64,000 nt of DNA, taken from Polyangiaceae bacterium. Its GTDB lineage: Bacteria > Myxococcota_A > Polyangia > Polyangiales > Polyangiaceae. How positions within the stretch are numbered: position 1 is the first letter of the stretch; each line of letters begins with the position of its first letter. Location of the stretch: the NCBI GenBank assembly GCA_033763455.1, contig JANRKO010000062.1, positions 32,001 to 96,000 on the forward strand, written 5' to 3'. This document shows positions 1-41,941 of this stretch, piece by piece. The notes below the pieces were generated by a model. The model ran no database searches and was not told where the DNA came from. It worked only from the letters and a program-made list of their open reading frames with translations. The position numbers were made by a program, and so were the translations under genes.

Positions 1-981
1 CTCGGTTGCGGCTCAGATGGTACTGTCCGCCCAGTACGAGGGTCGTACGCTGAAACAGGTGGTGCAGGGGTCACGGTTGGCAACTCGACTGGAGGCGGTG
101 GGGGGTCCGGTGGTAGCGCTCCGGGGAAGGTGGGTACCGGAGGCACGGCAGGCAGCGGAGGCTCAAATTCAGGTGGAACAGGCGGCAAGTTAACGTCGAT
201 GGGCGGCTCAGGCGGGGTTCCTTCGGTTCCGACCGGTGGCGCAAGTAGCACTACCGGTGGAGTGGGCAATTCGACGGGGGGAGCTCAGGCCGCCTCGGGT
301 TGCGCGAATTCAAGCTATCTTCTCTGTGAAGACTTCGAGGGCACAGCGGTGGGGGCAATTCCCGCCGGCTGGACAAAACAAGGTGCGACCGGCGTGGTAG
401 AAGACAACGCGCGGAATGGCACCCGTTCGCTCAAAGTAGAGCCAGCAACGAACGGACCACGAAGGATTTTGCACCCCGCAGAGACCTTTGGAAGCAAGCA
501 CTGGGGTAGGATTTTTTATAAGCTACAGCTGCCGGTGCCCGATGCTTTTGTGCACTCGACGTTGGTGGCACTTTCTGGAAACGGCCCCAACATTGGGGCA
601 GCAGAATATCGCGTTGTGGATACCGTGAAGCAGGCCGTGGATACGCAAGATGTGGGCTCGCGCTATCAATTTTTGTTTAATGTGCAGCCGCAAAATAGTG
701 CAGAGTTCGGCACCGGCACGAATTATGATCGGCCGTTTGACGGCGAATGGCACTGCGCGGAGTGGAACATCGACGCCGCCGATCAATCTTACCGGATGTA
801 CTGGGACGGCACCGAGATGCTCAACTTCACTCGCGGAGCCGGCAATTACGCTGGCTCGGAAATCCCCAATGAGTTTGGCGAGATCAGAGTTGGGCTGAAC
901 AATTACCAAGCGGCTCCGCCCGGATTCACCGTTTGGATCGACGATATTGCGATTTCGGCGGCTCGGGTGGGGTGCCAGTAG
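1..981 (+). CDS. Lipoprotein (5'-truncated) with Gly/Ser/Thr linker and C-terminal Cip1-like / polysaccharide-lyase-like beta-sandwich domain
   Basis: Frame is open from base 1 (L-G-C-G-S-D lipobox at 1-18). Low-complexity linker, then LCEDFE...WHCAEW...VWIDDIAIS..RVGC, typical of myxobacterial ConA-like/Cip1-like domains. Confidence 0.7.
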   Translation, partial: LGCGSDGTVRPVRGSYAETGGAGVTVGNSTGGGGGSGGSAPGKVGTGGTAGSGGSNSGGTGGKLTSMGGSGGVPSVPTGGASSTTGGVGNSTGGAQAASGCANSSYLLCEDFEGTAVGAIPAGWTKQGATGVVEDNARNGTRSLKVEPATNGPRRILHPAETFGSKHWGRIFYKLQLPVPDAFVHSTLVALSGNGPNIGAAEYRVVDTVKQAVDTQDVGSRYQFLFNVQPQNSAEFGTGTNYDRPFDGEWHCAEWNIDAADQSYRMYWDGTEMLNFTRGAGNYAGSEIPNEFGEIRVGLNNYQAAPPGFTVWIDDIAISAARVGCQ

Positions 982-987
982 ACCTTG

Positions 988-1028
988 ATCCTTGCAAATC
1001 TAACACGTTGTGTTTAATTTGCAAGGAT
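988..1028. promoter_or_regulatory. Inverted repeat / putative operator overlapping the start codon of the AAA ATPase gene
   Basis: ATCCTTGCAAAT (988-999) is the exact reverse complement of ATTTGCAAGGAT (1017-1028). Inner AACAC/GTGTT also pair. Confidence 0.6.
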
Positions 1029-2199
1029 GATACCTCGTGCCGTTCTGGCCGCCGTGACGAGGGCGCTGGACCGCCAGGCCGCCGTCTGTCTCGTCGGGCC
1101 CCGCCAAGTGGGCAAGACGACGCTCGCCCGTGAGATCGGAGAAAGAGCGTCTGGGATCTACCTGGACCTCGAGTCCGAAGCGGATCGGGCCAAGCTCACG
1201 GAGCCCGCGCAGTTTCTCCGCAGGTTCGAGGACCGCTTGGTTATCTTGGATGAGATCCACCGTGTGCCGGAAATATTTAGCACACTTCGTGGTCTCATTG
1301 ACGACGGAAGGCGCAGGGGGAAACGCCATGGCAGATTCTTGCTGCTTGGCTCGGCCTCCATCGAATTGCTTCAACAATCTAGCGAGACCTTGGCGGGGCG
1401 AATCGCGTTTGTGGAGATGGGGCCACTCAACATCCGAGAGATCGATCCTTCGGAAGAAGCTCTTGAGCGGCTGTGGTTGAGGGGAGGATTTCCCGACAGC
1501 TTCTTGGCGCGTTCGGATGAGGAAAGCCTACTCATTCGAATGGACTTCATAAGGACGTATCTCGAACGCGACGTGCCCCAGTTTGGCCCTCGTGTGCCAA
1601 CAGAAACTCTACGGCGACTTTGGTCGATGTTGGCCCACAACCAGGGCGCACCGCTCAACGCGTCGCGGCTTGCGATGGGGCTCTCGGTGAGCGCACCGAC
1701 TGTGACTCGGTACATAGATCTGTTGTGCGATTTGCTGTTGGTGCGACGCCTTGCGCCATTGCACGCCAATCTTGGAAAACGGCTTGTAAAGACACCTAAG
1801 GTGTACGTGCGGGATAGCGGGCTAGTGCACGCCTTGCTCAGTATTGAAGATCCAGAAGAGCTTGCGGGCCATCCCGTAGTGGGCGCTAGCTGGGAAGGCT
1901 TCGTGATCGAGAACCTGCTGCTTTTCGCTCCGCCGCAATCCGTTGCTAGCTATTATCGCACCTCAGCCGGCGCGGAGATCGATCTCGTGTTGGATGTTCC
2001 CAAGCGTGGCCGCTGGGCAATTGAGGTAAAAAGCGGGCTTTCTCCGCGACCTACGAAGGGCTTCTACTTGGCATGCGACGATATTGAGCCGAAGAAGCAA
2101 TGGGTTGTGTATATGGGCAACGATCGTTACCCGTTGAGTGCTGGCGTAGAAGCTATCAGCCTCGCGGAGCTCGCTTCGGAGCTGGATGGATCGAAGTGA
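1027..2199 (+). CDS. AAA+ ATP-binding protein (AAA_14 + HTH + DUF4143 nuclease-like C-terminus)
   Basis: Walker A GPRQVGKTT, Walker B VILDEIH, LLGSAS, RGGFP, KTPKVYVRDSG and C-terminal EIDLV...AIEVK. Confidence 0.9.
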   Translation: MIPRAVLAAVTRALDRQAAVCLVGPRQVGKTTLAREIGERASGIYLDLESEADRAKLTEPAQFLRRFEDRLVILDEIHRVPEIFSTLRGLIDDGRRRGKRHGRFLLLGSASIELLQQSSETLAGRIAFVEMGPLNIREIDPSEEALERLWLRGGFPDSFLARSDEESLLIRMDFIRTYLERDVPQFGPRVPTETLRRLWSMLAHNQGAPLNASRLAMGLSVSAPTVTRYIDLLCDLLLVRRLAPLHANLGKRLVKTPKVYVRDSGLVHALLSIEDPEELAGHPVVGASWEGFVIENLLLFAPPQSVASYYRTSAGAEIDLVLDVPKRGRWAIEVKSGLSPRPTKGFYLACDDIEPKKQWVVYMGNDRYPLSAGVEAISLAELASELDGSK

Positions 2200-2249
2200 C
2201 CGAACCATGACGGCACTCATGCCAACAAGGTGCAATTCTAGTCTTCAGA

Positions 2250-3326
2250 TTGTCCCTCCAAGCTACCTCCACTTACGCCGGTGAAATCAAGCCTCTTTTG
2301 GGAGTGGGTGTCTTTGCGCCTGCGCGCTCTAGATTGTGGTGGTTGCCCCTACATGGTGGGGTCATCGCTCTTTCGATTACAGCTATCGCGATGGGTTGGT
2401 TGCCTTGGTTTTTGTGGCCTCTCGCTTCGTTGCTTCTTGGCTTGAGTTTTGCGGGCCTTACGTTTTTGGCTCATGAGGCGCTGCACGGGGCTGTTGTTCG
2501 TTCGCGCACGTTGCGAACGTTGGTGGGTTGGATTGGATTTTCGCTATTTTGCGTGTCACCCACGCTGTGGGTGGCCTGGCACAACCGGGTGCATCACGGC
2601 AACACGAATAGGCCTCGTGTGGATCCTGATGCATACCCCACGCGCGCTGAATACGATGAGAGCCCGACGTTGCAGTGGATGACGAACGTGATGGCTCCCG
2701 GTCGGCAACGGCCGCTTGGTGTAATAAGCTTGTTGATTGGGTTCACCGTGCAGAGCTTGCACATGCTGGTAGCGGCTCGAAGGCTGGGTTATCTTTCCGC
2801 GTCTCAGCACCGGCGGGCAATCTTTGAAACGAGCCTCGCGGCGTTGCTTTGGGCTGGCCTCGGGTTTCTCATCGGGCCGTTGCCATTTCTGTTCTGTTTC
2901 TTGTTCCCGTTAATGGTCGCCAATTGCATCGTGATGGCGTTCATTCTCACCAACCACAGCCTGAGCCCACTCACGGACGTGAATGACCCTCTCGCCAATT
3001 CCTTGAGCGTTACCTTGCCCGGCTGGTTGGAATGGCTCAGCCTGGGGTTCGGCTACCACGTGGAGCACCACATTTTTCCCGCCATGAGCTCCCGGCACGG
3101 CCAGGCCGTGCGAGCCGTGCTGCGTTCCCGGTGGCCTGGCAGCTACCAATCGCTTCCACTTCTAAAGGCGCTTGGCGCTTTGCATCGATCGCCGCGCGTC
3201 TACAAGACTTACACACTCCTTACGGATCCCCTAGGCAGCTCAGAATGGCCCACGTTGGCCCCACGGCATGTGTCGGAGCCTGTCGGCATCCGCGACGCTC
3301 GCCGACCCTGTGTTGGTGCCGGCTGA
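2250..3326 (+). CDS. Membrane fatty acid desaturase family protein
   Basis: Three His boxes (HEALH, HNRVHH, HVEHH) and several TM segments. TTG start is uncertain. Confidence 0.85.
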   Translation: MSLQATSTYAGEIKPLLGVGVFAPARSRLWWLPLHGGVIALSITAIAMGWLPWFLWPLASLLLGLSFAGLTFLAHEALHGAVVRSRTLRTLVGWIGFSLFCVSPTLWVAWHNRVHHGNTNRPRVDPDAYPTRAEYDESPTLQWMTNVMAPGRQRPLGVISLLIGFTVQSLHMLVAARRLGYLSASQHRRAIFETSLAALLWAGLGFLIGPLPFLFCFLFPLMVANCIVMAFILTNHSLSPLTDVNDPLANSLSVTLPGWLEWLSLGFGYHVEHHIFPAMSSRHGQAVRAVLRSRWPGSYQSLPLLKALGALHRSPRVYKTYTLLTDPLGSSEWPTLAPRHVSEPVGIRDARRPCVGAG

Positions 3327-3430
3327 ATGACCACCCGCGCGAACCGGTCTAGTGTGCTGCTTGCTTTCCTACCCAATCTTCACCTCGGCGTCGCCATATC
3401 GTCACGCTTGCAGCGGTAACCCCTGAGGCC

Positions 3431-5371
3431 ATGGGAGACCTAGTTGGTGACGTAGTTGCGGGTAAGCTGGTTTGGGTTCCGGCGACTCAATTTGAGCAGA
3501 TTCTGAGGCTTGAGGTTCAACCCGAACGGCGCGCGCAGCTGTTCGCGGATGCTTGCCGCCTGAACGTACTATACATGATAGCCAGAGCCGGCTCTGGGCA
3601 CCTCGGCAGCTCTTTCTCAAGTCTCGACATTGTTACTTGGCTCCACCTGAACCAATTGCAACACGTCAGTGCGGGCGTTCCGGCGCCGAACTCTGACGTC
3701 TACTTTTCCTCGAAAGGGCACGATGCACCCGGGCTGTATGCGGTGCGGCTTGCGATGGGTTTGCTGCCCTTCGAATTGCTCCATCAGCTGAGAGTCCTCA
3801 ACGGTTTGCCTGGTCATCCGGACGTCGGAACACCGGGGATCGTGGCGAACACCGGATCGCTCGGGATGGGGATCTCAAAGGCCAAGGGCATGGCCTGGGC
3901 GCGCCGTCACCAGGGGCGATCCGGTAGGATCTACGTGATGACAGGGGACGGGGAACTTCAAGAGGGGCAGATCTGGGAATCTCTAGTATCTGCCGCCAAC
4001 CATAAGCTTTCCGAGATCACCGTTATCGTTGACCACAACAAGCTTCAAAGCGACACCTTCGTGGGTAACACGAGCGATTTGGGTGATCTCGTTAAGAAGT
4101 TCGAAGCGTTCGGCTGGGCCGTATTTTCAGTGGATGGGCACGATTATTGGTCGCTCGCCGAGATGCTGGAGGCGGCGCGCAGCGTCACGGATAGGCCGCA
4201 GGTGATCATCGCGCACACCGTGAAAGGGCGCGGGGTCTCCTTCATGGAGCATACGAGTTTGGACTCAGATGTCTCATTTTATCGCTTTCATTCAGGGGCA
4301 CCCGACTCCGAAAACTACCAACGTGCTGCCGAGGAGCTCATCGCAAACCTCCATCGCCAATGCGACGCCATGGGCGTGCCTCGGCTCCAGTTTGAATCTG
4401 CACAGAGTGTGGTGGTCCCCGCGAGTGGTCAGAAGGAGCGCCTCATTGGGGCCTACTCGCGCGCACTCCTTTCGCAGATGGACAAGGTCCCCCATCTAGT
4501 GGTGATGGATGCGGATCTACTGGTGGATACGGGGCAATTGCCAGCGCGTGACGCCCATCCGGACCGCTTCATAGAGTGTGGCATCGCCGAGATGGACATG
4601 GTGAGCCAGGCCGGAAGCCTGGCGCGCGAGGGATTTCTCCCCATTTGCCATTCCTTTGCCTGTTTTCTCTCTACGCGTGCCAATGAGCAGATCTACAACA
4701 ACGCGACTGAACATTCGCGAGTGATCTACACCGCCTCGCTTGCAGGCCTCTTGCCCGCAGGCCCCGGTCACTCCCATCAGTCGGTGCGTGATATCTCTGC
4801 GGTGGGAGCGATCCCCGGGCTCATCTTGCTGGAGCCGTCCACAGAAGCTGAGGTGCCCCGGGCGTTGGAGTGGGCCATTGCGCAAGCGCCATCAAGCGTC
4901 TGGCTGCGCCTCGTGAGTATACCTTGTGAAATTCCGTTTCAGTTGCCGGAGGCCCCGCTCGAAATGGGTAAGGGCACTGAGCTTCGGCAAGGTGAGGACG
5001 CGCTGTTCATCGCCTATGGTCCGGTGCTTCTCGCCGAAGCTTGGCACGCCTCGGAGGCACTAGAAGCCCAGCACGGCCTCAAGGTGGGAGTGGTTGCGCT
5101 GCCGTGGTTAAACCGGCTTGATGAAGCTTGGCTCGCCCGTGTCGTGGCTTCTCGCCGCCACATTTTCACGTTGGACAATCACTACGTTGCGGGTGGCCAG
5201 GGGCAGCTCATAGGAGCCACCGTGGCCAGCTTGGGCTTGAGCTCGGTTCGGGTACACAACATCGGGGTGGAATCGGTGCCCGCGTGCGGTCGAAACCAAG
5301 AAGTGCTGCAGCACCATGGCCTGGATGCGGCCTCCCTCGTGCCACGGGTTCGGAGCGTTTTAGAGCGGTGA
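3431..5371 (+). CDS. Single-chain transketolase-family TPP enzyme (N + pyrimidine-binding + C domains)
   Basis: GSGHLGSS, SKGHDAP, LPGHPD, TGSLGMG, TPP motif GDGELQEG...N, ECGIAE and GHSHQ. Confidence 0.9.
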   Translation: MGDLVGDVVAGKLVWVPATQFEQILRLEVQPERRAQLFADACRLNVLYMIARAGSGHLGSSFSSLDIVTWLHLNQLQHVSAGVPAPNSDVYFSSKGHDAPGLYAVRLAMGLLPFELLHQLRVLNGLPGHPDVGTPGIVANTGSLGMGISKAKGMAWARRHQGRSGRIYVMTGDGELQEGQIWESLVSAANHKLSEITVIVDHNKLQSDTFVGNTSDLGDLVKKFEAFGWAVFSVDGHDYWSLAEMLEAARSVTDRPQVIIAHTVKGRGVSFMEHTSLDSDVSFYRFHSGAPDSENYQRAAEELIANLHRQCDAMGVPRLQFESAQSVVVPASGQKERLIGAYSRALLSQMDKVPHLVVMDADLLVDTGQLPARDAHPDRFIECGIAEMDMVSQAGSLAREGFLPICHSFACFLSTRANEQIYNNATEHSRVIYTASLAGLLPAGPGHSHQSVRDISAVGAIPGLILLEPSTEAEVPRALEWAIAQAPSSVWLRLVSIPCEIPFQLPEAPLEMGKGTELRQGEDALFIAYGPVLLAEAWHASEALEAQHGLKVGVVALPWLNRLDEAWLARVVASRRHIFTLDNHYVAGGQGQLIGATVASLGLSSVRVHNIGVESVPACGRNQEVLQHHGLDAASLVPRVRSVLER

Positions 5372-6151
5372 TTGGGGAGGTGTCGGCCGCCGAAACGAAT
5401 GCATGTGGTGCAAGAAATACGCGGCCCAGCCCTCTTTGGGGTAGTCGAGATCAGGCAGGCCATACGCTTGGGGCTTTTGTGCCGGCAAATAAGCCGTCCC
5501 GAACATCCAATCCCAAATCGCTAACTTGGTACCAAAATTCAAACCGGGCGCCTTCGTTTCCCGGGCGTGGTGCCAGCGGTGCATCTCCGGACCGTTGATG
5601 ACGTATTGCAGAACGCCCGAACGCACGTTGATGTTTGAATGAATGTACATCCCCCAGACGGCATCTAGGACGCCTTTTGCCGCAATTACTTCAGGGGCCG
5701 CCCCTAACAAGACCATCGGGGCAAATTCGATCGTTTGGTTGATCAAGATTTCGAGCGCGTGGGAGCGTGCTCCAGAAAGCCAATCCACATCTTTTACAGA
5801 ATGGTGAGCTTCGTGGAGGCGCCAGAGAATGTCAGATTTGTGCTGCAGCCGGTGAAACCAATAAATATAAAAGTCGTGGATCACAAAGAAGAAGGCAAGC
5901 TGAGCCCAGAGCGGCCAAGCGCTCACGAACCCGCCGTCGAACCAGCTCACCTGCGCACGGATAGCCGCAATGATGCCCGCAATCACCACGCTCAATACAT
6001 AGCTCTGCGCTATTGCGTACAAGAAGAGATCTGTGCCGAGGCCTGGCCTTAGGAAACGCTGCCTCGGCTCATAGGGGGCAAGGCGCTCAAGCCCCACCAA
6101 AAGCGCTGCTCCAAGGATGATAATGCCGAAGGTGATGACGGTAGAGTTCAC
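5360..6151 (-). CDS. Sterol desaturase / fatty acid hydroxylase superfamily protein
   Basis: His boxes YWFHRLQH, LHEAHHS, HSN and HRWHH, plus NFG...WDWMFGT. Confidence 0.9.
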   Translation of the reverse strand: MNSTVITFGIIILGAALLVGLERLAPYEPRQRFLRPGLGTDLFLYAIAQSYVLSVVIAGIIAAIRAQVSWFDGGFVSAWPLWAQLAFFFVIHDFYIYWFHRLQHKSDILWRLHEAHHSVKDVDWLSGARSHALEILINQTIEFAPMVLLGAAPEVIAAKGVLDAVWGMYIHSNINVRSGVLQYVINGPEMHRWHHARETKAPGLNFGTKLAIWDWMFGTAYLPAQKPQAYGLPDLDYPKEGWAAYFLHHMHSFRRPTPPQSPL

Positions 6152-6163
6152 ACTTTACCCTTC

Positions 6164-7126
6164 TCAGACTTCGCTAGAAGCGATCCGCCGCAACTTCTCA
6201 CGGTAGGGAACTTCACTCGGGTAAACACGCTTGATGCCATCGCCGAAGGCTTTTTCGATGTCTCGCACCTGCGCTACCAGTCTCTGCAGACCACTCAGCT
6301 CTACGGACGCTGCATGGTCCGTTCCCCACATGGCGCGGTCCAGCGTGATGTGGCGCTCCACAAACGTGGCCCCCATGGCCACGGCGGCCCACGTGGGTGC
6401 GAGCCCTGTTTCGTGCCCCGAATACCCCACTGGGCAGTTGGGGTAACGAAGCTTCAGCGTCTGGATCATGCGCAAATTCAGCTCTTCTAGCGGGCAGGGG
6501 TACGTAGAGGTCGCGTGCGCGATCAGGAGCCCGTCCATGCCCAGTGTTTGTACGGCCGTGTGCACTTCAGCCGAGGTGGACATGCCCGTCGAGAGTATCG
6601 CAGGGCGACCTGTGGACTTGAGCTTTTGCAGAAGCTCCATGTCCGTAATCGAGGCTGACGCGATCTTGTAACATGGTGGTGCGAACTGTTCGATAAAGTC
6701 TACCGACTCGGCATCCCAGCAAGAGGCGAACCAATCAATGCCCTCCCGTCGGCAAAAGCGATCTATCTCTCGGTATTCGGCCTCGCCGAACTCGATGCGA
6801 CGCTTGTAGTCGATGTACTTCATCCGCCCCCACGGCGTATCTCGCATCATCTCCCATTGGCTCTTGGGTACGCAGATTTCGGGCGTTCTTTTTTGGAACT
6901 TCACCGCATCGCATCCCGCGCTCTTTGCGCCGGAAATAAGGCGTTTGGCGATATCGAGGTCGCCGTTGTGATTGATGCCGATCTCGGCGATAAGGTAGAC
7001 GGGCTCACCTTCACCCACATAGCGGTTGCCGATTTTTACCCGAGCCCGCCGGTCTCCGGTTTCAGGTAAACGCGTCATCAGCGTGGAGTGTCGGGTCATT
7101 TCGTCGAGCATTTGGTGCGTTGTCAT
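6164..7126 (-). CDS. neuB: NeuB-family PEP-dependent ulosonate synthase (lacks the C-terminal SAF/antifreeze-like domain)
   Basis: IAEIGINHNG, DAVKFQKR, KIASA, ILSTGMS, STYP, GYSGHE and ERHITLDR. Confidence 0.9.
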   Translation of the reverse strand: MTTHQMLDEMTRHSTLMTRLPETGDRRARVKIGNRYVGEGEPVYLIAEIGINHNGDLDIAKRLISGAKSAGCDAVKFQKRTPEICVPKSQWEMMRDTPWGRMKYIDYKRRIEFGEAEYREIDRFCRREGIDWFASCWDAESVDFIEQFAPPCYKIASASITDMELLQKLKSTGRPAILSTGMSTSAEVHTAVQTLGMDGLLIAHATSTYPCPLEELNLRMIQTLKLRYPNCPVGYSGHETGLAPTWAAVAMGATFVERHITLDRAMWGTDHAASVELSGLQRLVAQVRDIEKAFGDGIKRVYPSEVPYREKLRRIASSEV

Positions 7127-7129
7127 GTT

Positions 7130-7654
7130 TCATGCCTCCTGTCGAACGGCTAAAATCCAATCCGCAAACTCACGAAAACAGCCCCCGCCGCCTTTGGCTG
7201 TCGTTACCTTGTGCGCCATATCCAGCACGCTCGCCACCGCGTCGTTGGGCGCTCCCGTGAGCCCCACCTCGCTCACGAGCGCCATCGCCCCAAAATCATT
7301 CACGTCGTCGCCGATGTAGGCCACTTCGTCGAGTCGGTAGTGCGCTCTGAGCAGTAGCTCAGGCAACGCACGGGCCTTGTCTTCGACGCCACGCCACACA
7401 TGTGAAAGCTTGAGCTTTTGTGACCTTCGGAGCGCAATTGGGCAATTTTCGCGGGTAAAGTAGGCTGTTTCGATGCCGGCTGAGCGCAGTAGCTCGGTAC
7501 CCATTCCGTCGCGGAGGCTGAATCGCTTCAGCTCCTCACCGCGTTCGCTGTAGTAAACCTGCGCAGGAGTGAGCACTCCATCGACATCACTTACAAGTAG
7601 CCGAATTCTGCGAGCGCGTTCGCCCAGTTGAGCTGACGGGAGCGTTCTCACCAT
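7130..7654 (-). CDS. KdsC/YrbI-family HAD phosphatase (ulosonate-phosphate phosphatase)
   Basis: DVDGVLT, RDGMG, YIGDDVND and GGGGCFRE. ATG at 7654 overlaps the SDR stop region. Confidence 0.88.
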   Translation of the reverse strand: MVRTLPSAQLGERARRIRLLVSDVDGVLTPAQVYYSERGEELKRFSLRDGMGTELLRSAGIETAYFTRENCPIALRRSQKLKLSHVWRGVEDKARALPELLLRAHYRLDEVAYIGDDVNDFGAMALVSEVGLTGAPNDAVASVLDMAHKVTTAKGGGGCFREFADWILAVRQEA

Positions 7655-8463
7655 GCCGTCCAACCACCGTCCACTACCAAGTTGGCGCCGGTCATGTAGG
7701 CGGATTCATCGCTGGCGAGGAATACCAACGCGCCACGGTAGTCTGCTTTGTTCGCCATGCGCCCAAGCGGCACTCGGCTTGCGTATTCAGCTTGGAAATC
7801 AGCGTTCTGGCCGTTCGCCACACCACCGGGAGAAAGTGAGTTCGCACGCACCCCCGACCGCCCATAGTAGGCCGCGAGGTAGCGAGTGAGGTGTAAAAGG
7901 CCAGCTTTTGACACCGGATAGGCCGGTGATTTGAAAAAACGCTGTTGCCCTTGTTGATCGAGATAGAGATCTTGGTTGGGGGCGACGATTCCGTACGTGG
8001 AGGCGACGTTTATGATACTGCCGCTGCCACGGCGTACCATTGCTGGCGCGATACTTTGAGCACAAAGAAAGGCGCCCGTGAGGTTCACGCGCATCAGCCG
8101 CTCCCAGGACTCCAGCGGGTAGTTCTCGAAGCGGCTCTGCTCAAGCACGAGCTCGGGCGATTCCACCTTGTCGTCAACAGCGGCGTTGTTTACCAGCACG
8201 TCCACTCGGTCGAAGCGTGCCAACACTTCGCGCGTCATCTCGACAACAGATGCCCTGTTCCCAACGTCCACGCCTAAGCCAACAGCTCGGCCGCCAAATC
8301 GCTCCGCCAATTCACCGGCAAGGTTCCGGGCCGCGGCGCCATCCAAATCCGCAACAACAACGGTGGCTCCGTTTCCGAGTAGGGCTAAACAATGTTCTTT
8401 GCCAAGCAAACCGAGCGATCCGGTGACGATCGCGACCTTGTGCGTGAGATCGAACATGCTCAT
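7648..8463 (-). CDS. Short-chain dehydrogenase/reductase
   Basis: VTGSLGLLG, LVNNAA, YPVSK catalytic YxxxK and YMTGANLVVDGG. Start trimmed to MSMF at 8463. Confidence 0.9.
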   Translation of the reverse strand: MSMFDLTHKVAIVTGSLGLLGKEHCLALLGNGATVVVADLDGAAARNLAGELAERFGGRAVGLGVDVGNRASVVEMTREVLARFDRVDVLVNNAAVDDKVESPELVLEQSRFENYPLESWERLMRVNLTGAFLCAQSIAPAMVRRGSGSIINVASTYGIVAPNQDLYLDQQGQQRFFKSPAYPVSKAGLLHLTRYLAAYYGRSGVRANSLSPGGVANGQNADFQAEYASRVPLGRMANKADYRGALVFLASDESAYMTGANLVVDGGWTAW

Positions 8464-8530
8464 GACGGACTCGTTATGAGTCAGACACTGCCGAACTACG
8501 GTGACAGAACGGCGAAGCTTACGCGACAGT

Positions 8531-9832
8531 TTATTGAGTTTTGCGGAAAACTGGTTGTACGGGTTTGCCTTGAATGTCGTTGCGCACGGTGTTCTTCCTA
8601 ATCGCTCGGCCGAGCACTGGAAGCGCGGCATCGTAGGCGGCGAGAATGCGCTCTACATCCGCTGTTTTGTGCGAAAAGCTCATGTTGTGGAAGCCGGTCC
8701 ACAAGACTCCGTGCCGGATGAGCTCTTGCTGTAAAAGCGACTTGGCAAGCAGTGGGTCGACGGCCTTTTCGTCGAACGTGACGAGTGTGCGACACGGGAG
8801 CCCGATACAGCGCGTAAATGGAAGCTCGTGCTTCTCCGCCAAGCGGTTGTAACCTTCCTGCAACATCGTCCCCATGTCTGCGAGGTGTTGGGGTACGCCC
8901 TTTTCTTCCAACTCCTCGAGCGTGGCTTTTGCCGCTGCCAAAGAAAGGGCCTCACCGCCAAAGGTGGTGTAGAAAAATACGTCATTTTCACACAACTTCA
9001 GCACATCTCGCCGTCCGCTGAGGACGCTCAAAGGCATCCCGTTGGCGACGGCCTTCGAGAAACAAGCCAAGTCGGCTCCCACGTCGAAGTAGGCCTGGGC
9101 TCCACCGAGCCCTAAGCGGAAGCCCGTCCACATCTCATCGAAGATAAGGAGCGTTCCGTTTTGTGTGCAAAGCTGGCGGAGCTCCTGCAAAAACGCGTTG
9201 CGCGGCTCCTCGAATAGCACGGGCTCAAGAATGATGGCCGCAAGGTCTTGGTCCAGAATAGACCGAACGGAAGAAAGATCGTTGTAGGTGAATTTGCGTG
9301 TGAGCGCTTGCACCTCGCTGGGCACTCCCAGGCTTCGCGGGGTCGTGCCGATGTACCAGTCGTGCCAACCGTGATAGCCCGAACACGCCACCACTTTTCT
9401 TCCGGTAAAGGCGCGCGCAAGCCTTACGGCCGCGCTGGTTACGTCGCAGCCTGTTTTGCTAAAACGTACCATTTCCGCCCCAGGAATATGGCCTTTTAGT
9501 TGCTCGGCCACCTCCACCTCCAGAGGATGTACGAGCGAGAAGGTAATCCCATCCTCAAGTTGACGGCGGATGGCATCGTCTACCTTGTCGTAGCAATAGC
9601 CCAGGGAAAGCGGGCCCACGGCCATCGTGAGGTCGATGAATTCGTTCCCATCAACATCCCAGACGCGACAGCCTTTGCCGCGACGTAGGAACTTGGGGGC
9701 CACGCCATCTACGTACTGCGTGGCTCCTTTGGCTAGGGTCTGCGTCGCTCCCGGGATCGCTGCGAGAGCGCGCGCGTACCAGGCATTGGATTCGGAAATT
9801 TTGGGCAGAGCGAGTTCGTCAGTTGGTGGCAT
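8531..9832 (-). CDS. Class III PLP aminotransferase (GSA-aminomutase-like, sugar-pathway type)
   Basis: WDVDGNEFID, GYHGWHDW, LIFDEMWTGFR, FSKAVANG and TTFGGE. Start could be 9832 or 9880. Confidence 0.88.
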   Translation of the reverse strand: MPPTDELALPKISESNAWYARALAAIPGATQTLAKGATQYVDGVAPKFLRRGKGCRVWDVDGNEFIDLTMAVGPLSLGYCYDKVDDAIRRQLEDGITFSLVHPLEVEVAEQLKGHIPGAEMVRFSKTGCDVTSAAVRLARAFTGRKVVACSGYHGWHDWYIGTTPRSLGVPSEVQALTRKFTYNDLSSVRSILDQDLAAIILEPVLFEEPRNAFLQELRQLCTQNGTLLIFDEMWTGFRLGLGGAQAYFDVGADLACFSKAVANGMPLSVLSGRRDVLKLCENDVFFYTTFGGEALSLAAAKATLEELEEKGVPQHLADMGTMLQEGYNRLAEKHELPFTRCIGLPCRTLVTFDEKAVDPLLAKSLLQQELIRHGVLWTGFHNMSFSHKTADVERILAAYDAALPVLGRAIRKNTVRNDIQGKPVQPVFRKTQ

Positions 9833-10637
9833 GGGGTAGTCCTGAGCTCGGTTGAGGGAGGTGGAGGGTTTTGAGTTCATGCAGGTGCTTCTGTTGCCAG
9901 CACACGCCAAGATGGGTTCGGTTGAGGGCCATGAGCTCGGGCTCTCTGCTCAGCAACTCTAAGATCTCCGGCAGCGAGAAGGCGGCCCCAAACCTCGGGA
10001 GGAGTCGCTCAAAAACAGCCCGAATGAATTGGTAGTCGGCTTCGTAATCCAAGACGAAGCGATGGGTGGCCGAGTAATCCCCACCCCCGGGGTAGAGCAC
10101 ATTACCGATCCGAAAGCGCTCGTTATTGTCCCAAATGAACGGAGTGGTGTGCTCACGCTCAAATGGCCTTTGCGCTTCTATCCACGCAGTCTTGAGCGCA
10201 TCCATCGTCATGATTTCCACGTCGTTGCCGTCTGGCCAACTCGGGGGCTGAAGGTTGCTGACGAAGTCGAAGTTGTCCTTGTTCTCCAGAAAGTAGCCAA
10301 GGACGTGATCCAGTGCGGCCGGATCTATGAGTGGACAGTCGGACGGGATCTTCACAACCACGTCAGCTCCAAACTGCAAGGCTGCGCGATAGTGACGATC
10401 CAAAAGATCGTTGGTGCTGCCGCGAAACACCAGAATGTTGCGCTCTTGGCACAGGCTCACGATGGCGGCATCTTCGGGTTCTGAAGTGGTTGCAACCACC
10501 AACTCGAACTGGCTTTTTGCGGCTCGAATGCGCTCTAACATTCGGACCAAGACTGGCTCTCCAAGGAGCGGCAACAGCACTTTTCCCGGCAAGCGTGATG
10601 ACCCAAGCCGAGCTTGAACAACAACGAGTGTTCTCAC
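9819..10637 (-). CDS. SpsF/PseF-like cytidylyltransferase (CMP-ulosonate synthetase family)
   Basis: QARLGSSRLPGKVL, RGSTNDLLDR, SDCPLIDP, DGNDVE and REHTTP. GTG start overlaps the upstream TGA (GTGA). Confidence 0.85.
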   Translation of the reverse strand: MRTLVVVQARLGSSRLPGKVLLPLLGEPVLVRMLERIRAAKSQFELVVATTSEPEDAAIVSLCQERNILVFRGSTNDLLDRHYRAALQFGADVVVKIPSDCPLIDPAALDHVLGYFLENKDNFDFVSNLQPPSWPDGNDVEIMTMDALKTAWIEAQRPFEREHTTPFIWDNNERFRIGNVLYPGGGDYSATHRFVLDYEADYQFIRAVFERLLPRFGAAFSLPEILELLSREPELMALNRTHLGVCWQQKHLHELKTLHLPQPSSGLPHATN

Positions 10638-11623
10638 GCCGCCACCTCGCCTCGCAAATCGGCCCGTTCGGTGGCTAGGAGTTCGCGGCAAACATCCGCA
10701 ATGCGCTTGGCGGCCTCACCGTTTTGCTCTGGCACGAGCTCCACCAACTCCTCCATGGGGTGGTACGAGTAGCACTCCTTTCCGAGTGCCAAGCCAACGA
10801 ACACCACCGAGGAATACTGGGTGATGAGAACTTCCGAGTTGGCAATCATGGCGTTGGTGTCGCCACTGTCGAAAACGAGTGCATCGGGCACCCAACGTTT
10901 AAGCTCGCGGGTTGCCCGCTGGGCATTTTCGTTGGGATGGAGCTTGAAAATTAGGGGGCGACCAGCGGCTTTTTCAACAGCCCAATCGACGAATTTACGG
11001 CGTTTGTCGAGCTTGAGGGTTTCCCGAGCGTCGGAAGTACACACCAGTGCATAACCACGATAGGGAAACTCATTGTTGAGGAAACGCGCGCAGTTGTCGA
11101 AGTTCGGTATGCCTGTCACGATAAGGCGATCTTCGGGAACGCCGCGCTCAGCGAAGTAGCGCTTATAGCCTGCGCTCGCCACGCAGAAGCGTGAGTAGGC
11201 ACGGCTCATCCCTGTCGTGATGGTCCCCGCAATCCATCGTGGAAGTACCGGGAATTTGCGCACCAAATCCCCTAATACGTTGTTCGGATCCAGGATCCCT
11301 TCCTGCACTAAAACGGTAGGCACCCCGCGAATGTTGTCTGGAATCACGATGTCCGAACACGTGAGCACCAGATCATACCGGCCTCGCCGCCCTCCAATAT
11401 CAAGGTTCAGGCCGTTCGCCTCAAGGTAATCTAGGCATCGGCGCGTCAGCTTGTTGCCCGCGATCGAGAACTCGCACAGCCTCGCTTTCTTGGCAAAGTC
11501 AAGGATGGGTCCGCCGTAGTAGGGAGTAAAATAGGCTTCTGCCTCCGGCAAAAAGCTCGAAATTTGATGCATTTGCGTGGTCTGGTTGAGGGAGCCACAG
11601 ATGTAGAGAACTCGCAGGGTCAT
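10634..11623 (-). CDS. Uncharacterised GT-B-fold protein (NeuC-epimerase-like / CMP-sugar transferase-like)
   Basis: LVQEG, VTGIPNFD, FKLHP and ITQYSSV..GLALGK resemble GT-B nucleotide-binding halves. Translationally coupled to spsF-like gene. Confidence 0.6.
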   Translation of the reverse strand: MTLRVLYICGSLNQTTQMHQISSFLPEAEAYFTPYYGGPILDFAKKARLCEFSIAGNKLTRRCLDYLEANGLNLDIGGRRGRYDLVLTCSDIVIPDNIRGVPTVLVQEGILDPNNVLGDLVRKFPVLPRWIAGTITTGMSRAYSRFCVASAGYKRYFAERGVPEDRLIVTGIPNFDNCARFLNNEFPYRGYALVCTSDARETLKLDKRRKFVDWAVEKAAGRPLIFKLHPNENAQRATRELKRWVPDALVFDSGDTNAMIANSEVLITQYSSVVFVGLALGKECYSYHPMEELVELVPEQNGEAAKRIADVCRELLATERADLRGEVAA

Positions 11624-11631
11624 ACCGTGAT

Positions 11632-12678
11632 CTAGTTGGTTGTAAGTGTTGTGGGCGTTAAGTGGAAAGTGCGTGGGAGCGCAAAAAGGCCGTAGCCTAT
11701 ACTGGCCCAGAAGAGCTCTTTGCCGCGCTTCAGTAGGCTAAAGGCAGCAGCTGTTGAGACAGGATCGACCACCCCGAGTGCTCGGAAGAACGTAAAGTAC
11801 CCTAGGTCTTGGATGCCAAGCCCTGCCGGAACTACAACAATCAAGCTGCGCGCTAGGCTGAGGAGGACCTCGAAGCTCATCACCTCTGCCAAGCTCAACC
11901 GAGCGCCGAGAAGGCTCAAGATCACCCAGGTTTCCACCGATTCCATGGCCCACAAGAGGACAATTGGAGCCACCTGGGTGAGCCCCACCGGGCGATGGAA
12001 GAAGCGCTGTAGCGTGGCGTCAGTGGCAGAGAAGTGCGGTGACGCACGCAATAGGGTGCGCCGAAAGGCTTCGCTCGGGATCCGCAGCAACACTCTTAGG
12101 GTGAAGGTTGCAAGCGCGCCGCGGTTTAGACCGGAACCAAACACGATGGCCACCGTTCCGAGTGTGATGGCGGCCACCAGCGGAGCCCACTGTAAAGCGG
12201 TGGAATTGATTAGTTTTTGCGAAGCTTGTGCGAGCGCCTCATGACCTACAAGAAATGCGACCAAGAGAAACCACGCCTGCGATAGCGCGAGCAGGTACTT
12301 GCGCACCCCCACTGCCGCCACGCCGGCTGATACGGGAAGGCCTCCCCGTTGGAGCAAGGCAGCTGTGGCAGAATCACACACGAGTTGTCCGAACGGCAGA
12401 GTGAGCGAAAGCGCTTCCGTCTTCAGGCGGACACGCAAAAGCCCCACAAATGGCACCGCATGACCGAGACGAAGAATGGCGTTTCGCCAGCCCCAGGTCT
12501 CACTGCCGACTGCCAAGGCGTATGGGAGCAAAACGAGGGGGAGCGCCGCCGGATGGAGCCGCCCTAGCAGTGCGGTTACTTGATTGAGCTGGGCGTGGCG
12601 GAAAGTCCAGGCGAGCAATCCTAACGCTGCGACAACGCCAAGCGTTGCAAGAGTGCGCCGATGCTTTGCTCGACCCAT
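11632..12678 (-). CDS. Lysylphosphatidylglycerol-synthase TM-region (UPF0104, flippase-like) membrane protein
   Basis: Multi-TM protein with VPAGLGIQD motif and ...KRGKELFW. Confidence 0.75.
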   Translation of the reverse strand: MGRAKHRRTLATLGVVAALGLLAWTFRHAQLNQVTALLGRLHPAALPLVLLPYALAVGSETWGWRNAILRLGHAVPFVGLLRVRLKTEALSLTLPFGQLVCDSATAALLQRGGLPVSAGVAAVGVRKYLLALSQAWFLLVAFLVGHEALAQASQKLINSTALQWAPLVAAITLGTVAIVFGSGLNRGALATFTLRVLLRIPSEAFRRTLLRASPHFSATDATLQRFFHRPVGLTQVAPIVLLWAMESVETWVILSLLGARLSLAEVMSFEVLLSLARSLIVVVPAGLGIQDLGYFTFFRALGVVDPVSTAAAFSLLKRGKELFWASIGYGLFALPRTFHLTPTTLTTN

Positions 12679-12808
12679 GATTGGGTGACCGTAGTGACGT
12701 CAGATGACAGTTCGGCGACGGTTTCATAACGTATTGGGCGCAGACAAAACATCGGGCGCCTGGGAGGCGGGGATTGACAGCTGTTGGCGAGCCCCACAAA
12801 AGCTCGGC

Positions 12809-13927
12809 ATGCACCAAGCTCGTGGCGTCTGGCTGTTTGGGATATCTTTCCTCTTTGCGGGTTGCGGGGACAAAGCAAGTCCACCCGTGAGCGACACGGC
12901 CTTAGGTGGAGCGACGAGTTCCGGCGGAGCTAGTGTGAGGGCCGGTGGAAGTGGTGGCGGGGGAGGCGCTGCGGGCGGTGCAAGCGCAGGAGGGAGTGTG
13001 GCGGCTGGAGGCACTGTCGCCGCTGCTGGCGCACTGAATCCTTCTGGAGGTAATGGTGGAGCGGGTGGAGCTGGGCAAGTCGCGTGCGTACGGGATCAAG
13101 ACTGTTTCGACGGAAACTTCTGTAACGGCGAGGAAGTCTGTTCTCCGGGTGCGCCGGGTACGGATGCGCGTGGGTGTAAGCCTGCGCTCGCAGGGCCTTG
13201 CGCTGGCGATACGCTCTGCGATGAGGCAACGTATCGCTGCGTGGGCGCTTGCCCTGTTGTAGGCGCGCAGCAGTCTCTTGTGCCCACAATTGCCTCAGAA
13301 TTTTCGCTGGCGCAGGAGTTTGGTTCAAACGTTTCGGTAGCGCTGGCGCCACTTGATGCAGACGGGGACGGCGCTGCGTGGGATGTGGACTGCGACGATA
13401 ACAACCCCAACCGTTACCCTGGAAATACGGAGGTGTGTGACCTTCAGAACGTGGACGAAGACTGCAACCCAGCCACCTTCGGTCTAATCGATCAAGACGG
13501 GGACGGTGCTATCTCCGCCTCGTGCTGCAACGCGCAGCCCTCTGGCGGCCCTCTGTGCGGTACCGATTGCGACGACTTGCATTCGAACGTCAAGCCAGGT
13601 GTCTTGGAAACCTGCAATCACGTCGACGACAATTGCGACGGAGTCGTCGACGATGGCGTCGGTCAAGTGGGCTATCGGGATCAGGATGGTGATGGTTTTG
13701 GAGACCCTGGCTGCACGCGGTCCGTTTGCGGGGTCGAGAACGGCTACGTTCTGAATGCGAATGACTGTGACGACACACGGCCAGCCATCGGTGTTGGCAG
13801 CCAGGTTTGCGCGCCAGATGGACAGGCGGTGTTGTTGTGCGCTTCTCCCGCCACTTTCTCGCGTCTACCGTGCCCCAAAGGCAAGGTTTGCGTCTCCCAG
13901 CCGGACGGCACCGGTCGGTGCGAGTAG
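12809..13927 (+). CDS. Cys-rich lipoprotein with MopE-like putative metal-binding repeats
   Basis: Lipobox FAGC, Gly linker, repeats DxDGDG...DCDD..P...PG..E.C...DxxCDG. Start trimmed to ATG 12809. Confidence 0.75.
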   Translation: MHQARGVWLFGISFLFAGCGDKASPPVSDTALGGATSSGGASVRAGGSGGGGGAAGGASAGGSVAAGGTVAAAGALNPSGGNGGAGGAGQVACVRDQDCFDGNFCNGEEVCSPGAPGTDARGCKPALAGPCAGDTLCDEATYRCVGACPVVGAQQSLVPTIASEFSLAQEFGSNVSVALAPLDADGDGAAWDVDCDDNNPNRYPGNTEVCDLQNVDEDCNPATFGLIDQDGDGAISASCCNAQPSGGPLCGTDCDDLHSNVKPGVLETCNHVDDNCDGVVDDGVGQVGYRDQDGDGFGDPGCTRSVCGVENGYVLNANDCDDTRPAIGVGSQVCAPDGQAVLLCASPATFSRLPCPKGKVCVSQPDGTGRCE

Positions 13928-13947
13928 TTGGTGCGGGATCGCTCGCA

Positions 13948-15882: not shown

Positions 15883-15891
15883 ACGCGTGCG

Positions 15892-17739: not shown

Positions 17740-17860
17740 CGCAACTAACCTCTCGCAGAAGACTTCCCCACCGCACCCCTGACGTCCGATGCCGCTTGCC
17801 GCCCGGATTGGCACAAGGTGGCACAGTTTTGAGGGTTGGAAAGCATCGGTTCAAATCTTG

Positions 17861-35647: not shown

Positions 35648-35702
35648 AGGGCTAAAGTTACCGCCCCTTCACGCAGTCAAAGTGCGTGGTAGCCTTCTCG
35701 GG

Positions 35703-36776: not shown

Positions 36777-36845
36777 GCCAACGAGCCCGGAGTTTAACCC
36801 ACGGCGGAGGGTGCTGATGCGCTCACGCCAGGCATTGAGTGCCCG

Positions 36846-39395: not shown

Positions 39396-39520
39396 GCACA
39401 AATTGGCTTTCGGGCGCGAGCGCGGACCGTTGCTCACAACATCGAGAGGTGCAAGTGGCCGAGCAGCCGTCGCTCACCTCGGGCCGTGGCGGCGCAAGGC
39501 ATTGCGAGCTCTAAGTGAGA

Positions 39521-39538
39521 TACTTAGCATGCTAAGTA
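39521..39538. promoter_or_regulatory. Perfect 18-bp palindrome, putative transcription-factor operator
   Basis: TACTTAGCATGCTAAGTA, AT-rich, intergenic, upstream of the DUF3516 helicase. Confidence 0.55.
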
Positions 39539-39602
39539 CTCCTGCGTCCGAGAAGAAGGCTCGTGCGGTGCTAATCCCTCATGTAAGGAACAGTTCAAAT
39601 GT

Positions 39603-41936: not shown

Positions 41937-41941
41937 GCCGC

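Follow-up and report, generated by a model that had tools for sequence, protein, structure and literature searches.

The route to 2-keto-3-deoxynononic acid (KDN) and N-acetylneuraminic acid through their 9-phosphates, known from Bacteroides thetaiotaomicron for KDN and from the animal enzymes NANS, NANP and CMAS, condenses an aldose phosphate with phosphoenolpyruvate (PEP), then removes the phosphate and then activates the sugar with CMP. Here we describe a nine-gene module that follows the same logic, located at positions 3431-12678 of a stretch of 64,000 nucleotides (hereafter the window) from the genome of a Polyangiaceae bacterium (assembly GCA_033763455.1, contig JANRKO010000062.1, positions 32,001 to 96,000 of the forward strand). 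Like that route, the module has a NeuB-type synthase, a HAD phosphatase and a member of the CMP-synthetase families, encoded here in one operon. It differs in that its HAD protein scores below the cut-offs of the KDN-9-phosphate phosphatase and KdsC models and is not found in 12 of 41 related loci, in that its NeuB protein is without the C-terminal domain, and in the addition of a transketolase, a short-chain dehydrogenase/reductase (SDR), a class III aminotransferase (AT), a hydroxylase, a protein of GT-B fold and a flippase-like membrane protein. With moderate confidence, we propose that the module makes a 3-deoxy-ulosonic acid of the sialic acid, KDN or 3-deoxy-D-manno-octulosonic acid (Kdo) type, probably with a free amine, in CMP-activated form and installs it as the head group of a membrane lipid.

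Three other described systems are close to parts of this module. Shewanella reportedly makes 8-amino-Kdo (Kdo8N) with KdnB and KdnA, a dehydrogenase and then an aminotransferase acting on the ulosonic acid, and the product is said to be placed in the core of the lipopolysaccharide (LPS). The present module shares the combination of dehydrogenase and aminotransferase, whereas it uses an SDR and a class III AT resembling glutamate-1-semialdehyde (GSA) aminomutase, and LpxC, KdsB and WaaA were not found in the source genome, in contrast to the LPS location of Kdo8N. MprF combines a flippase-type membrane domain with a cytoplasmic enzyme: the latter alters the head group of a lipid, and the former carries the product across the membrane. 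The LPG_synthase_TM protein of our module is likewise paired with a cytoplasmic enzyme, and in 19 listed proteins is fused to it with the membrane part first and the enzyme second; unlike in MprF, the enzyme half is the GT-B protein and not LPG_synthase_C, the donor would be a nucleotide sugar and not lysyl-tRNA, and the two are separate genes in the window. For bacterial sphingolipids, three papers associate the head-group genes of the Sphingomonas glycosphingolipid and of the Caulobacter glycosphingolipid and ceramide phosphoglycerate with Spt, bCerS and CerR, and describe sphingolipids as trafficked to the outer membrane (PMC11087976, PMC11334938, PMC11324152). Spt, bCerS and CerR are published there as bacterial ceramide genes that are often clustered (PMC11334938, PMC11087976), and one of these papers states that, as of 2024, the flippase of bacterial glyco(sphingo)lipids had not been identified (PMC11087976). 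The head groups of those lipids are not ulosonic acids and their transferases belong to other families, and in the window's type of cluster the ceramide genes are not adjacent.

The locus and its gene families

The module consists of the following genes.
3431..5371, plus strand: transketolase-like thiamine diphosphate enzyme, 646 aa, with Transketolase_N, Transket_pyr and Transketolase_C domains; convergent with the operon
5360..6151, minus strand: membrane di-iron protein of the FA_hydroxylase family, 263 aa (PF04116, 109.5 bits); last gene of the operon
6164..7126, minus strand: short NeuB-type PEP-condensing ulosonate synthase, 320 aa (PF03102, 259.3 bits)
7130..7663, minus strand: HAD-IIIA phosphatase of the KdsC/YrbI family, 177 aa (TIGR01670, 114.7 bits)
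7648..8463 (longest reading frame to 8631), minus strand: classical SDR oxidoreductase, 271 aa (adh_short_C2, 171.8 bits)
8531..9832 (longest reading frame to 9910), minus strand: class III, GSA-aminomutase-like pyridoxal phosphate AT, 433 aa (PF00202, 161 bits)
9819..10637 (longest reading frame to 10691), minus strand: CTP_transf_3 cytidylyltransferase (CT; PF02348, 96.8 bits)
10634..11623, minus strand: GT-B-fold protein, 329 aa (predicted structure; Glyphos_transf, 23.2 bits)
11632..12678, minus strand: LPG_synthase_TM (MprF-flippase-like, HpnL-like) polytopic membrane protein, 348 aa (PF03706, 78.3 bits); first gene of the operon

A first-pass annotation of this DNA had described an operon of eight genes at 5360-12678, and the eight minus-strand open reading frames (ORFs), abutting or overlapping and belonging to the families it named, were recovered from the ORF list and from Pfam and NCBIfam. 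The unit nevertheless has nine genes, because the convergent transketolase gene at 3431-5371, whose ORF overlaps the 3' end of the hydroxylase gene by 12 nt, is duplicated and conserved together with the cluster. The annotation had also listed genes that it did not see, and Pfam scans of the 15 ORFs of window 1-17814 agreed, detecting no Pse/Leg dehydratase, DegT-type aminotransferase, acetyltransferase, Wzx/Wzy or capsule export gene. The CT, AT and SDR genes are probably shorter at the 5' end than their longest ORFs: start codons and the paralogous copy described below point to GTG 10637, ATG 9832 and ATG 8463, respectively, and for the SDR the Pfam match begins only at residue 65 of the longest ORF. 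With these probable starts the intergenic spacings are -4, -14, +67, -7 or -16, +3, +12 and +8 nt; the GTG of the CT gene overlaps the stop of the GT-B gene by 4 nt, and GGAGG lies 8 nt upstream of the NeuB ATG. A scan of 3000-13200 for consensus promoters and terminators gave 2 promoter-like and 12 terminator-like sites, the same level as in shuffled sequences. The sequencing runs that contain this DNA are sediment and soil metagenomes, with no RNA run among those listed.

The source genome (6.56 Mb in 92 contigs, 93.7% complete) carries the module twice. When the eight operon proteins were compared with the whole genome by tblastn, a second full set was found on contig C33 at 76-94% amino acid identity. 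The duplicated block corresponds to positions 35431-44745 of the window's own contig, that is, window 3431-12745; it takes in the transketolase gene, and the flanks of the two copies differ. Because the resulting 9,337-bp self-alignment at 80.4% identity is the largest diverged repeat of this genome, the next ones being about 3 kb, we regard the two copies as a paralogous module and not as the product of a mixed bin. The second copy (C33:115480-124802; L089:7548-16803) has kept all nine genes intact. It sits directly after the genes for the alpha and gamma subunits of ATP synthase and before those for a type III polyketide synthase (PKS) and a methyltransferase, and there the AT (ATG, 433 aa) and the CT (GTG) start at the equivalent codons. 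Apart from the phosphatases of the two modules, the genome has none of KdsC/YrbI type.

The family memberships of the sugar enzymes are clear, and their scores set them apart from the named enzymes of these families. The NeuB protein matches PF03102 (cut-off 22.1 bits) over residues 63-299 and scores below the cut-offs of the NeuB_NnaB model TIGR03569 (246.9 against 399.65 bits) and of the PseI model TIGR03586 (200.7 against 340.25). We call it short because its match spans only positions 1-278 of the 329 of the NeuB_NnaB model and no second domain, such as the SAF/antifreeze-like C-terminal domain, is listed; its nearest solved structure, 6ncs, is a short NeuB of 290 aa. The HAD protein lies above the cut-off of TIGR01670 (106.95 bits) and below those of the KdsC equivalog NF007019 (129.9 against 208) and of the KDN-9-phosphate phosphatase NF058599 (124.9 against 180), with the orthologue at one related locus, L035, reaching 143.2 bits for TIGR01670 and 155 bits for NF058599. 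The CT (PF02348 cut-off 22.6 bits) reaches 33-61 bits with KdsB models, all below their cut-offs (for TIGR00466, 32.9 against 155.2), and its nearest solved structure is 6oew, titled 'Cytidylyltransferase' (E 1.2e-41), KdsB structures following at E 4e-9 or weaker. The AT scores 388.4 bits with NF004856 (cut-off 486) and 244.3 with TIGR00713 (cut-off 527.3), and among solved structures it is related to GSA aminomutases and to aminoglycoside C-6' aminotransferases, the latter acting on sugar aldehydes. For the SDR the best NCBIfam model is NF006619 (PRK09186; 172 bits, cut-off 255), and for the transketolase it is NF004559 (362.7 bits, cut-off 488); the latter protein has Transketolase_N, Transket_pyr and Transketolase_C scores of 115.3, 82.8 and 57 bits, and human-type and split-chain transketolases are its nearest solved structures.

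The two membrane proteins gave a similar picture. The hydroxylase exceeds the PF04116 cut-off of 31 bits, shows the histidine boxes HRLQH, HEAHH and HRWHH in its translation, reaches 124.4 bits with the OlsE model NF052566, far below the cut-off of 475, and has no match at E<=1 among solved structures. The LPG_synthase_TM protein exceeds the PF03706 cut-off of 33.4 bits and scores 82.5 bits with the HpnL model TIGR03476, below the cut-off of 195.65. LPG_synthase_C, the aminoacyl-tRNA-dependent domain of MprF, is listed by Pfam for none of the nine module proteins. A complex prediction for the LPG_synthase_TM and GT-B proteins returned a score of 0.00 and gave no verdict. Since the cut-offs for NeuB, PseI, KdsC, KDN-9-phosphate phosphatase, KdsB, HemL and OlsE are not reached, we take the families as assigned and the functions as not being those of the named enzymes.

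Conservation, gene fusions and the GT-B protein

Loci related to the module were searched for with a GT-B alignment, and the best 80 of 579 confirmed loci were taken; cluster genes were scored in them by tblastn with the window proteins, except LPG_synthase_TM, for which an iterated HMM was used. Full loci, having NeuB, AT and CT, number 41; a further 15 are partial, mostly because of cut contigs, and 24 are GT-B-only, that is, without NeuB, AT, CT, SDR, HAD and hydroxylase. The order GT-B, CT, AT, SDR, NeuB on one strand is kept in 40 of the 41 full loci, L018 being rearranged. The SDR is present in all 41 and the HAD protein in 29. The first-pass annotation had proposed that the hydroxylase and the flippase-like protein belong with the sugar genes. 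For the hydroxylase this holds widely, since 35 of the 41 full loci have its gene directly after NeuB and on the same strand. For the flippase-like protein it holds in part: the LPG_synthase_TM gene, nearly always about 1.1 kb upstream of the GT-B gene on the same strand, occurs in 15 of 41 full (in each of these directly upstream), 6 of 15 partial and 1 of 24 GT-B-only loci, and it is fused to GT-B elsewhere (19 of 27 long homologues, see below), but it was not found in 26 of the full loci. At L016:7842-9959 and L075:5897-7414 its open frame, taken from stop to stop, is longer upstream by about 360 and 150 residues, respectively; the extra stretch is without a family match and may belong to a longer protein or be only untranslated sequence.

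The transketolase gene is present in 37 of the 41 full loci by tblastn and in 36 by phmmer. By tblastn it lies between CT and AT, directly before AT, in 32 loci, after the hydroxylase in four, which are the four closest relatives, and elsewhere in one; in L035 it is split into N and C subunits. Identities of the full loci to the window proteins are 60-71% for NeuB, 54-66% for AT, 52-63% for GT-B, 48-61% for CT and 52-70% for the hydroxylase. By their labels, the carriers belong to Myxococcota, Bacteroidota/Ignavibacteriota/Kapaibacteria, Acidobacteriota and Pseudomonadota, and they include three complete Sorangium chromosomes; the reading proposed here can be tested directly, because three cultured Sorangium strains (So ce1000, So ce134 and So ce1128; L021, L023 and L024) carry the cluster. 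Among 301 sampled Myxococcota genomes only 3 carry the cluster, and a CT orthologue of at least 52% identity was found only in the source genome and in G290 and G230, both of which hold the full cluster.

Fusion proteins were searched for among longer GT-B homologues at E<=1e-20, and 27 were obtained: 19 with PF03706, 2 with an ABC-2 permease, 2 with CT, 2 with Aminotran_3 and 2 without a domain on record. Domain order was checked on P0123, P0136, P0138 and P0139. In P0123 (689 aa), residues 13-327 correspond to the LPG_synthase_TM protein of the window (36% identity, E 1e-40) and residues 354-669 to its GT-B protein (58%, E 5e-133), a colinear fusion with the membrane part first and then the enzyme; P0136 is GT-B then CT, and P0138 is ABC-2 permease then GT-B. 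The fusions of LPG_synthase_TM with GT-B, having the layout of MprF, point to a lipid acceptor, as judged by analogy, and the fusions with CT tie the GT-B protein to the CT product. A 686-aa fusion of CT and AT in a genome of the same family (G260, L101:7363-9423, minus strand; 45% and 49% identity to the window proteins) ties the AT to the activated sugar rather than to the lipid. Its context is a Pse-like polysaccharide locus with a PseB-like protein, DegT and a GNVR chain-length kinase, so the pair of CT and AT is not confined to lipid contexts. Many CT paralogues of Myxococcota lie in open frames of 600-790 aa. The first-pass annotation had seen in NeuB, HAD and CMP-transferase, together with dehydrogenase and aminotransferase, the logic of an aminated ulosonic acid; the family matches fit this proposal, and the fusions of CT with AT and of GT-B with CT or AT back it.

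The GT-B protein had been described as an orphan, which it is not: more than 6,230 homologues were counted at E<=0.001 among 8,000 candidates scored, those about 60% identical to the query occurring in Polyangiaceae, Bacteroidota and Acidobacteriota, and all that bear a name are called 'hypothetical protein'. The structure predicted by AlphaFold2 (pLDDT 85.5) has the GT-B fold, and with it NeuC and UDP-GlcNAc 2-epimerases rank first in both Foldseek and VIA-align. The VIA-align Z scores are 18.0 for NeuC, 17-18 for the 2-epimerases, 15 for TagF, 14.3 for TarL, 13.4 for the polysialyltransferase 5wc6, 13 for a capsule multienzyme with CMP and 12.8 for WaaA. With TagF-like transferases and with the 2-epimerase/NeuC enzymes it shares the fold and C-terminal nucleotide-binding motifs, namely HP after a beta strand and LITQYSS, corresponding to LITDYSS or LTDSGG; it differs from both in having no clear sequence membership and in its family-specific N-terminal half.

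PF04464 (Glyphos_transf) is matched just above its cut-off of 22.1 bits and only over 56 residues (218-275), TIGR04396 gives a signal of the same level, and the PDB profile search returned only the TagF-like Cps3D (E 0.043), at the LITQYSS / LITDYSS motif. A search of the source genome with PF02350 found a true WecB-like gene (349.6 bits) and neither GT-B copy at E<=0.01; hhalign of the GT-B protein against this WecB-like gene gave a probability of 3.6%, only the nucleotide-binding half aligning (motif pairs KLHPNE/PLHPRT and LITQYSS/LTDSGG). Judged by sequence, the GT-B protein is not in the 2-epimerase/NeuC family and probably not in the TagF-like family. Alignment A1, of 14 sequences from several phyla, has 111 invariant columns, and the N-terminal half carries the invariant motifs GSxNQTTQ, TCSD and VQEGxxDP. 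Bacterial GT-B sialyltransferases have a D/E-D/E-G and an HP motif; Q107-E108-G109 and H229-P230 are invariant in A1.

The GT-B-only loci give an independent view of this family. In a quick maximum-likelihood tree, which omits L070 on account of a stop within its tblastn segment, 20 of the 24 GT-B-only rows form one clade (SH-aLRT 100) nested among sequences of the cluster type; L005, L028, L074 and L075 are scattered, and L028 is merely cut by a contig end. At least one Spt-like, N-acyltransferase-like or reductase-like gene lies within 10 kb in 12 of the 24 loci. Eight of them share a common order, in which a gene for a fatty acyl-AMP ligase, acyl carrier protein and oxoamine synthase (Spt models being best or near best for the last) is followed by an ABC ATPase, an ABC-2 permease, GT-B, a 380-aa GNAT-like protein and an epimerase-type reductase. 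An ABC-2 pair is present in 13 of the 24, and other GT-B-only loci adjoin large PKS genes with a radical SAM enzyme. The assignment of ceramide-type genes here depends on family and synteny; with that proviso, the siting of this sister clade in ceramide and polyketide-lipid clusters also points to a lipid acceptor. When five sister-clade genomes were searched for the cluster CT, three had none and two had matches of 35-37% identity only. Therefore, the GT-B protein need not use the CT product, or the donor has changed in the sister clade, where it must be a housekeeping metabolite; CMP-Kdo would be our guess.

Several single loci of the GT-B-only type are also worth recording. L005:4597-10948, in a Polyangiales metagenome-assembled genome (MAG), encodes a GT-B homologue 61% identical to that of the window without adjoining sugar genes, and its neighbours are a Lipid_DES desaturase with the N-terminal domain of sphingolipid delta-4 desaturase, a flavin amine oxidase and a kinase of APH/EcKL type. 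In a Syntrophobacteraceae MAG (L071:4336-7524) the gene next downstream of a squalene-hopene cyclase encodes a GT-B homologue, which hints that some members of the family act on hopanoids. A stand-alone LPG_synthase_C was found once, at L037:12112-13242 (minus strand), inside a ceramide-type cluster with GT-B; this may be related to the lysine-ceramides that PMC11334938 reports from the Black Sea.

Membrane lipids and the reading of the module

Ceramide is the leading acceptor candidate, because the source genome has its own set of Spt-like, N-acyltransferase-like and reductase-like genes and because the sister clade lies in clusters of such genes. At C43:155702-159595 (L088:7703-11596) an Spt-like gene, a gene for a 388-aa GNAT-type protein and a gene for an epimerase-type reductase are side by side, and this is a probable ceramide synthesis triad by family assignment. 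Among oxoamine synthase models the Spt-like protein scores best with NF047600 (456 bits, cut-off 640); it has 557 aa, with a 150-aa N-terminal extension ahead of the Spt-model match. A ceramide acceptor is plausible only by analogy with the sister clade. Co-occurrence at the genome level does not discriminate here: a ceramide-synthase-like match is present in 35 of the 41 genomes with the full cluster (33 strong, 2 weak), against a Bacteroidota background of 228 in 301. The first-pass annotation had also named a sterol-like acceptor, which the type of cluster seen in the window does not support; for a sterol or hopanoid acceptor of the window cluster we found only the weak HpnL-like score and the one sister-clade locus beside a squalene-hopene cyclase gene.

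The same annotation had preferred a lipid to a polysaccharide as the destination, and the LPS genes agree with it as far as the source genome is concerned. Family searches detected no LpxC and no N-terminal domain of WaaA (Glycos_transf_N) at 93.7% completeness, and a KdsB search returned only the two cluster CTs, at 29-33 bits. Because three independent genes were not found at this completeness, the lipid A-Kdo pathway is probably absent, in which case an LPS core sugar is an unlikely product in this genome; it is possible that the source myxobacterium has no LPS. Of 23 genomes sampled from its own family, 17 have LpxC. Among the 43 other cluster-bearing genomes, LpxC is present in 31, including all Bacteroidota and Acidobacteriota carriers, and was not found in 12, including the three complete Sorangium chromosomes. 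A link between the cluster and missing LPS genes within Myxococcota was considered and set aside, since 12 of 14 carriers are without a found LpxC but so are 153 of the 301 sampled genomes, and the comparison is confounded by kinship.

We infer every chemical step, the donor of the GT-B protein and the acceptor from the gene families, and on this basis the module would work as follows. The transketolase would supply or remodel a sugar phosphate; it may provide an unusual aldose phosphate or, together with the adjacent AT, an amino-polyol. The short NeuB would condense the sugar phosphate with PEP to an ulosonate phosphate, from which the HAD protein of YrbI type would strip the phosphate. The SDR may oxidise a hydroxyl and the class III AT turn the carbonyl into an amine, before or after activation, and the CTP_transf_3 enzyme would yield the CMP-sugar. 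At the cytoplasmic face of the membrane, the GT-B protein would transfer the sugar to a lipid hydroxyl, and the LPG_synthase_TM protein would flip the product to the outer side, in the way that MprF's flippase half handles lysyl-phosphatidylglycerol; in the sister clade an ABC-2 exporter would move the product instead. The di-iron hydroxylase would modify the lipid or its head group within the membrane. The sugar logic, the co-conservation and a probable destination other than LPS support the lipid-linked ulosonate of the first-pass annotation in part; this support does not extend to the acceptor, the position of the amino group or the role of the hydroxylase.

Several findings weigh against this reading. 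The transketolase is tied to no definite step. The closest folds of the GT-B protein, those of the UDP-GlcNAc 2-epimerases and NeuC at Z 17-18, are not transferases, while its signals at the sequence level are only TagF-like, and in the sister clade it works without the cluster CT. The CT-AT pair occurs also in a context of polysaccharide type (L101). Among the 41 full loci, LPG_synthase_TM was not found in 26, HAD in 12 and the hydroxylase in 6. Finally, ceramide-synthase-like matches are missing from 6 of the 41 cluster genomes, five of which (all except G043) were searched for Spt and gave no strong match.

Three other explanations must be compared with the lipid-linked ulosonate. The CMP-sugar might be a soluble donor for a glycan (an exopolysaccharide or a glycoprotein, or LPS in other phyla), the GT-B protein being a NeuC/PseG-like hydrolase or epimerase that supplies NeuB with a hexosamine, and the hydroxylase and flippase-like protein doing a separate job. 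The structural ranking described above, with NeuC at Z 18.0 and the 2-epimerases at 17-18 and with Foldseek in agreement, speaks for this explanation; four GT-B homologues have a precomputed PF02350 match, CT and AT are fused in the Pse-like locus of a same-family genome, 31 of 43 cluster-bearing genomes have LpxC, and a table of Legionella O-antigen genes in PMC3694923 places a GSA-like aminotransferase next to an acylneuraminate cytidylyltransferase. Yet PF02350 misses both GT-B copies of the genome while finding its true WecB-like gene, to which the GT-B protein aligns with an hhalign probability of only 3.6% and in the nucleotide-binding half. Fusions of GT-B to LPG_synthase_TM (19) and ABC-2 permease (2) also speak against it, as does a whole GT-B clade in ceramide and PKS-lipid clusters without NeuB or CT; by Pfam, no Wzx/Wzy, initiating transferase or export gene lies in or beside the module, and LpxC, KdsB and WaaA were not found in the source genome. 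We therefore consider a soluble glycan precursor unlikely. Distinctly unlikely, in our judgement, is a phosphodiester head group, in which a TagF-like GT-B protein would move a polyol or sugar phosphate from a CDP-donor made by the CT onto a lipid. It takes its force from the sole Pfam match of the GT-B protein (Glyphos_transf, 23.2 against 22.1 bits), the sole PDB profile match (TagF-like Cps3D, E 0.043, at LITQYSS / LITDYSS) and the Z scores of TagF (15), TarL (14.3) and the capsule multienzyme with CMP (13); the Pfam match covers 56 residues only, however, and the N-terminal half is without a TagF signal. NeuB with a phosphatase of the YrbI family, above the TIGR01670 cut-off, points instead to a dephosphorylated ulosonate, and CTP_transf_3 enzymes are known as a family to make CMP-ulosonates.

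The module might also be split, with NeuB, HAD and CT making an unmodified KDN- or Kdo-like sugar and the transketolase, AT, SDR and hydroxylase building or tailoring the lipid. For example, a ketol unit could be transferred to a long-chain aldehyde and the product transaminated, which would give a 2-amino-1,3-diol base, and hence sphingoid-like bases without serine palmitoyltransferase. Transketolase-transaminase cascades leading to 2-amino-1,3-diols are known in biocatalysis, the transketolase gene lies directly before AT in 32 of 41 loci, and such a route would suit the 6 of 41 cluster genomes without a ceramide-synthase-like match, of which the 5 searched gave no strong Spt match. To our knowledge, however, no natural transketolase acts on fatty aldehydes, and 35 of the 41 genomes have a ceramide-synthase-like gene anyway. 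The AT itself leans toward the sugar, being fused to CT in the sugar context of L101 and to GT-B in two listed proteins, and having sugar C-6' aminotransferases among its solved relatives. We regard this division of labour as improbable, the least probable of the three.

A lipid-linked ulosonate also allows a wider proposal, which is speculative and which we put forward only tentatively, at a low probability. Polyangia-type myxobacteria in which lipid A and Kdo genes were not found, namely the source organism and the three Sorangium strains with complete chromosomes, would cap ceramide with a CMP-derived ulosonic acid having a free amine, through the GT-B protein as a 'lipid ulosonyl-transferase' and an MprF-type flippase, and this bacterial analogue of a ganglioside would replace LPS in the outer leaflet. 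The transketolase, AT and SDR would then constitute a new route to a non-acetylated sugar like neuraminic acid, and in Planctomycetota, Betaproteobacteria and Thermodesulfobacteriota members of the sister clade would add sugars to ceramides and polyketide lipids.

Each of the enzyme families is known; their combination, the role of the GT-B family and the MprF-like pairing are new. The first-pass annotation knew of no characterised pathway with this composition, and our literature search, with subscription papers outside it, agreed in finding neither this set of genes nor a pathway to ulosonic-acid sphingolipids in bacteria described. If the lipid-linked ulosonate is real, it gives a function to a protein family of thousands of members, all so far 'hypothetical', extends the known membrane lipids of bacteria by an acidic or zwitterionic one bearing a sugar acid, and provides a candidate flippase for bacterial glyco(sphingo)lipids and a candidate outer-leaflet lipid for myxobacteria in which LPS genes were not found.

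An aminoglycosphingolipid of Chlorobium limicola was reportedly described by Jensen, Knudsen and Olson in 1991 (cited in PMC11762602). It is said to contain neuraminic acid and would be the only chemical precedent known to us for a bacterial sphingolipid bearing an amino sugar acid; we have not used it as evidence. No link to our cluster was established: the only locus with a Prosthecochloris label, L035 (a 3.6-Mb MAG titled Prosthecochloris vibrioformis), shares a class of only five genomes with MAGs titled 'Bacteroidetes bacterium' and is without an Spt or ceramide-synthase-like match. Because of this grouping its species label is doubtful.

Genes neighbouring the module

Just outside the duplicated block, a fatty acid desaturase gene (window 2250-3326, plus strand) scores 261 bits with the DesB-like model NF052549 (cut-off 500) and adjoins the cluster in none of the 80 loci. 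It is preceded by an AAA_14/DUF4143 ATPase gene (1027-2199, plus strand) and, further upstream, by an ORF without a family match (1-981). On the other side of the module, the gene for a protein with metal-binding repeats of MopE type (12704-13927, plus strand) starts 25 nt from the divergent operon start. It is followed by a gene for an SF1 helicase of the IGHMBP2 family (13948-15882, minus strand; TIGR00376, 458 bits, above the cut-off) and by a gene for a 640-aa DUF2330 protein (15892-17814, minus strand).

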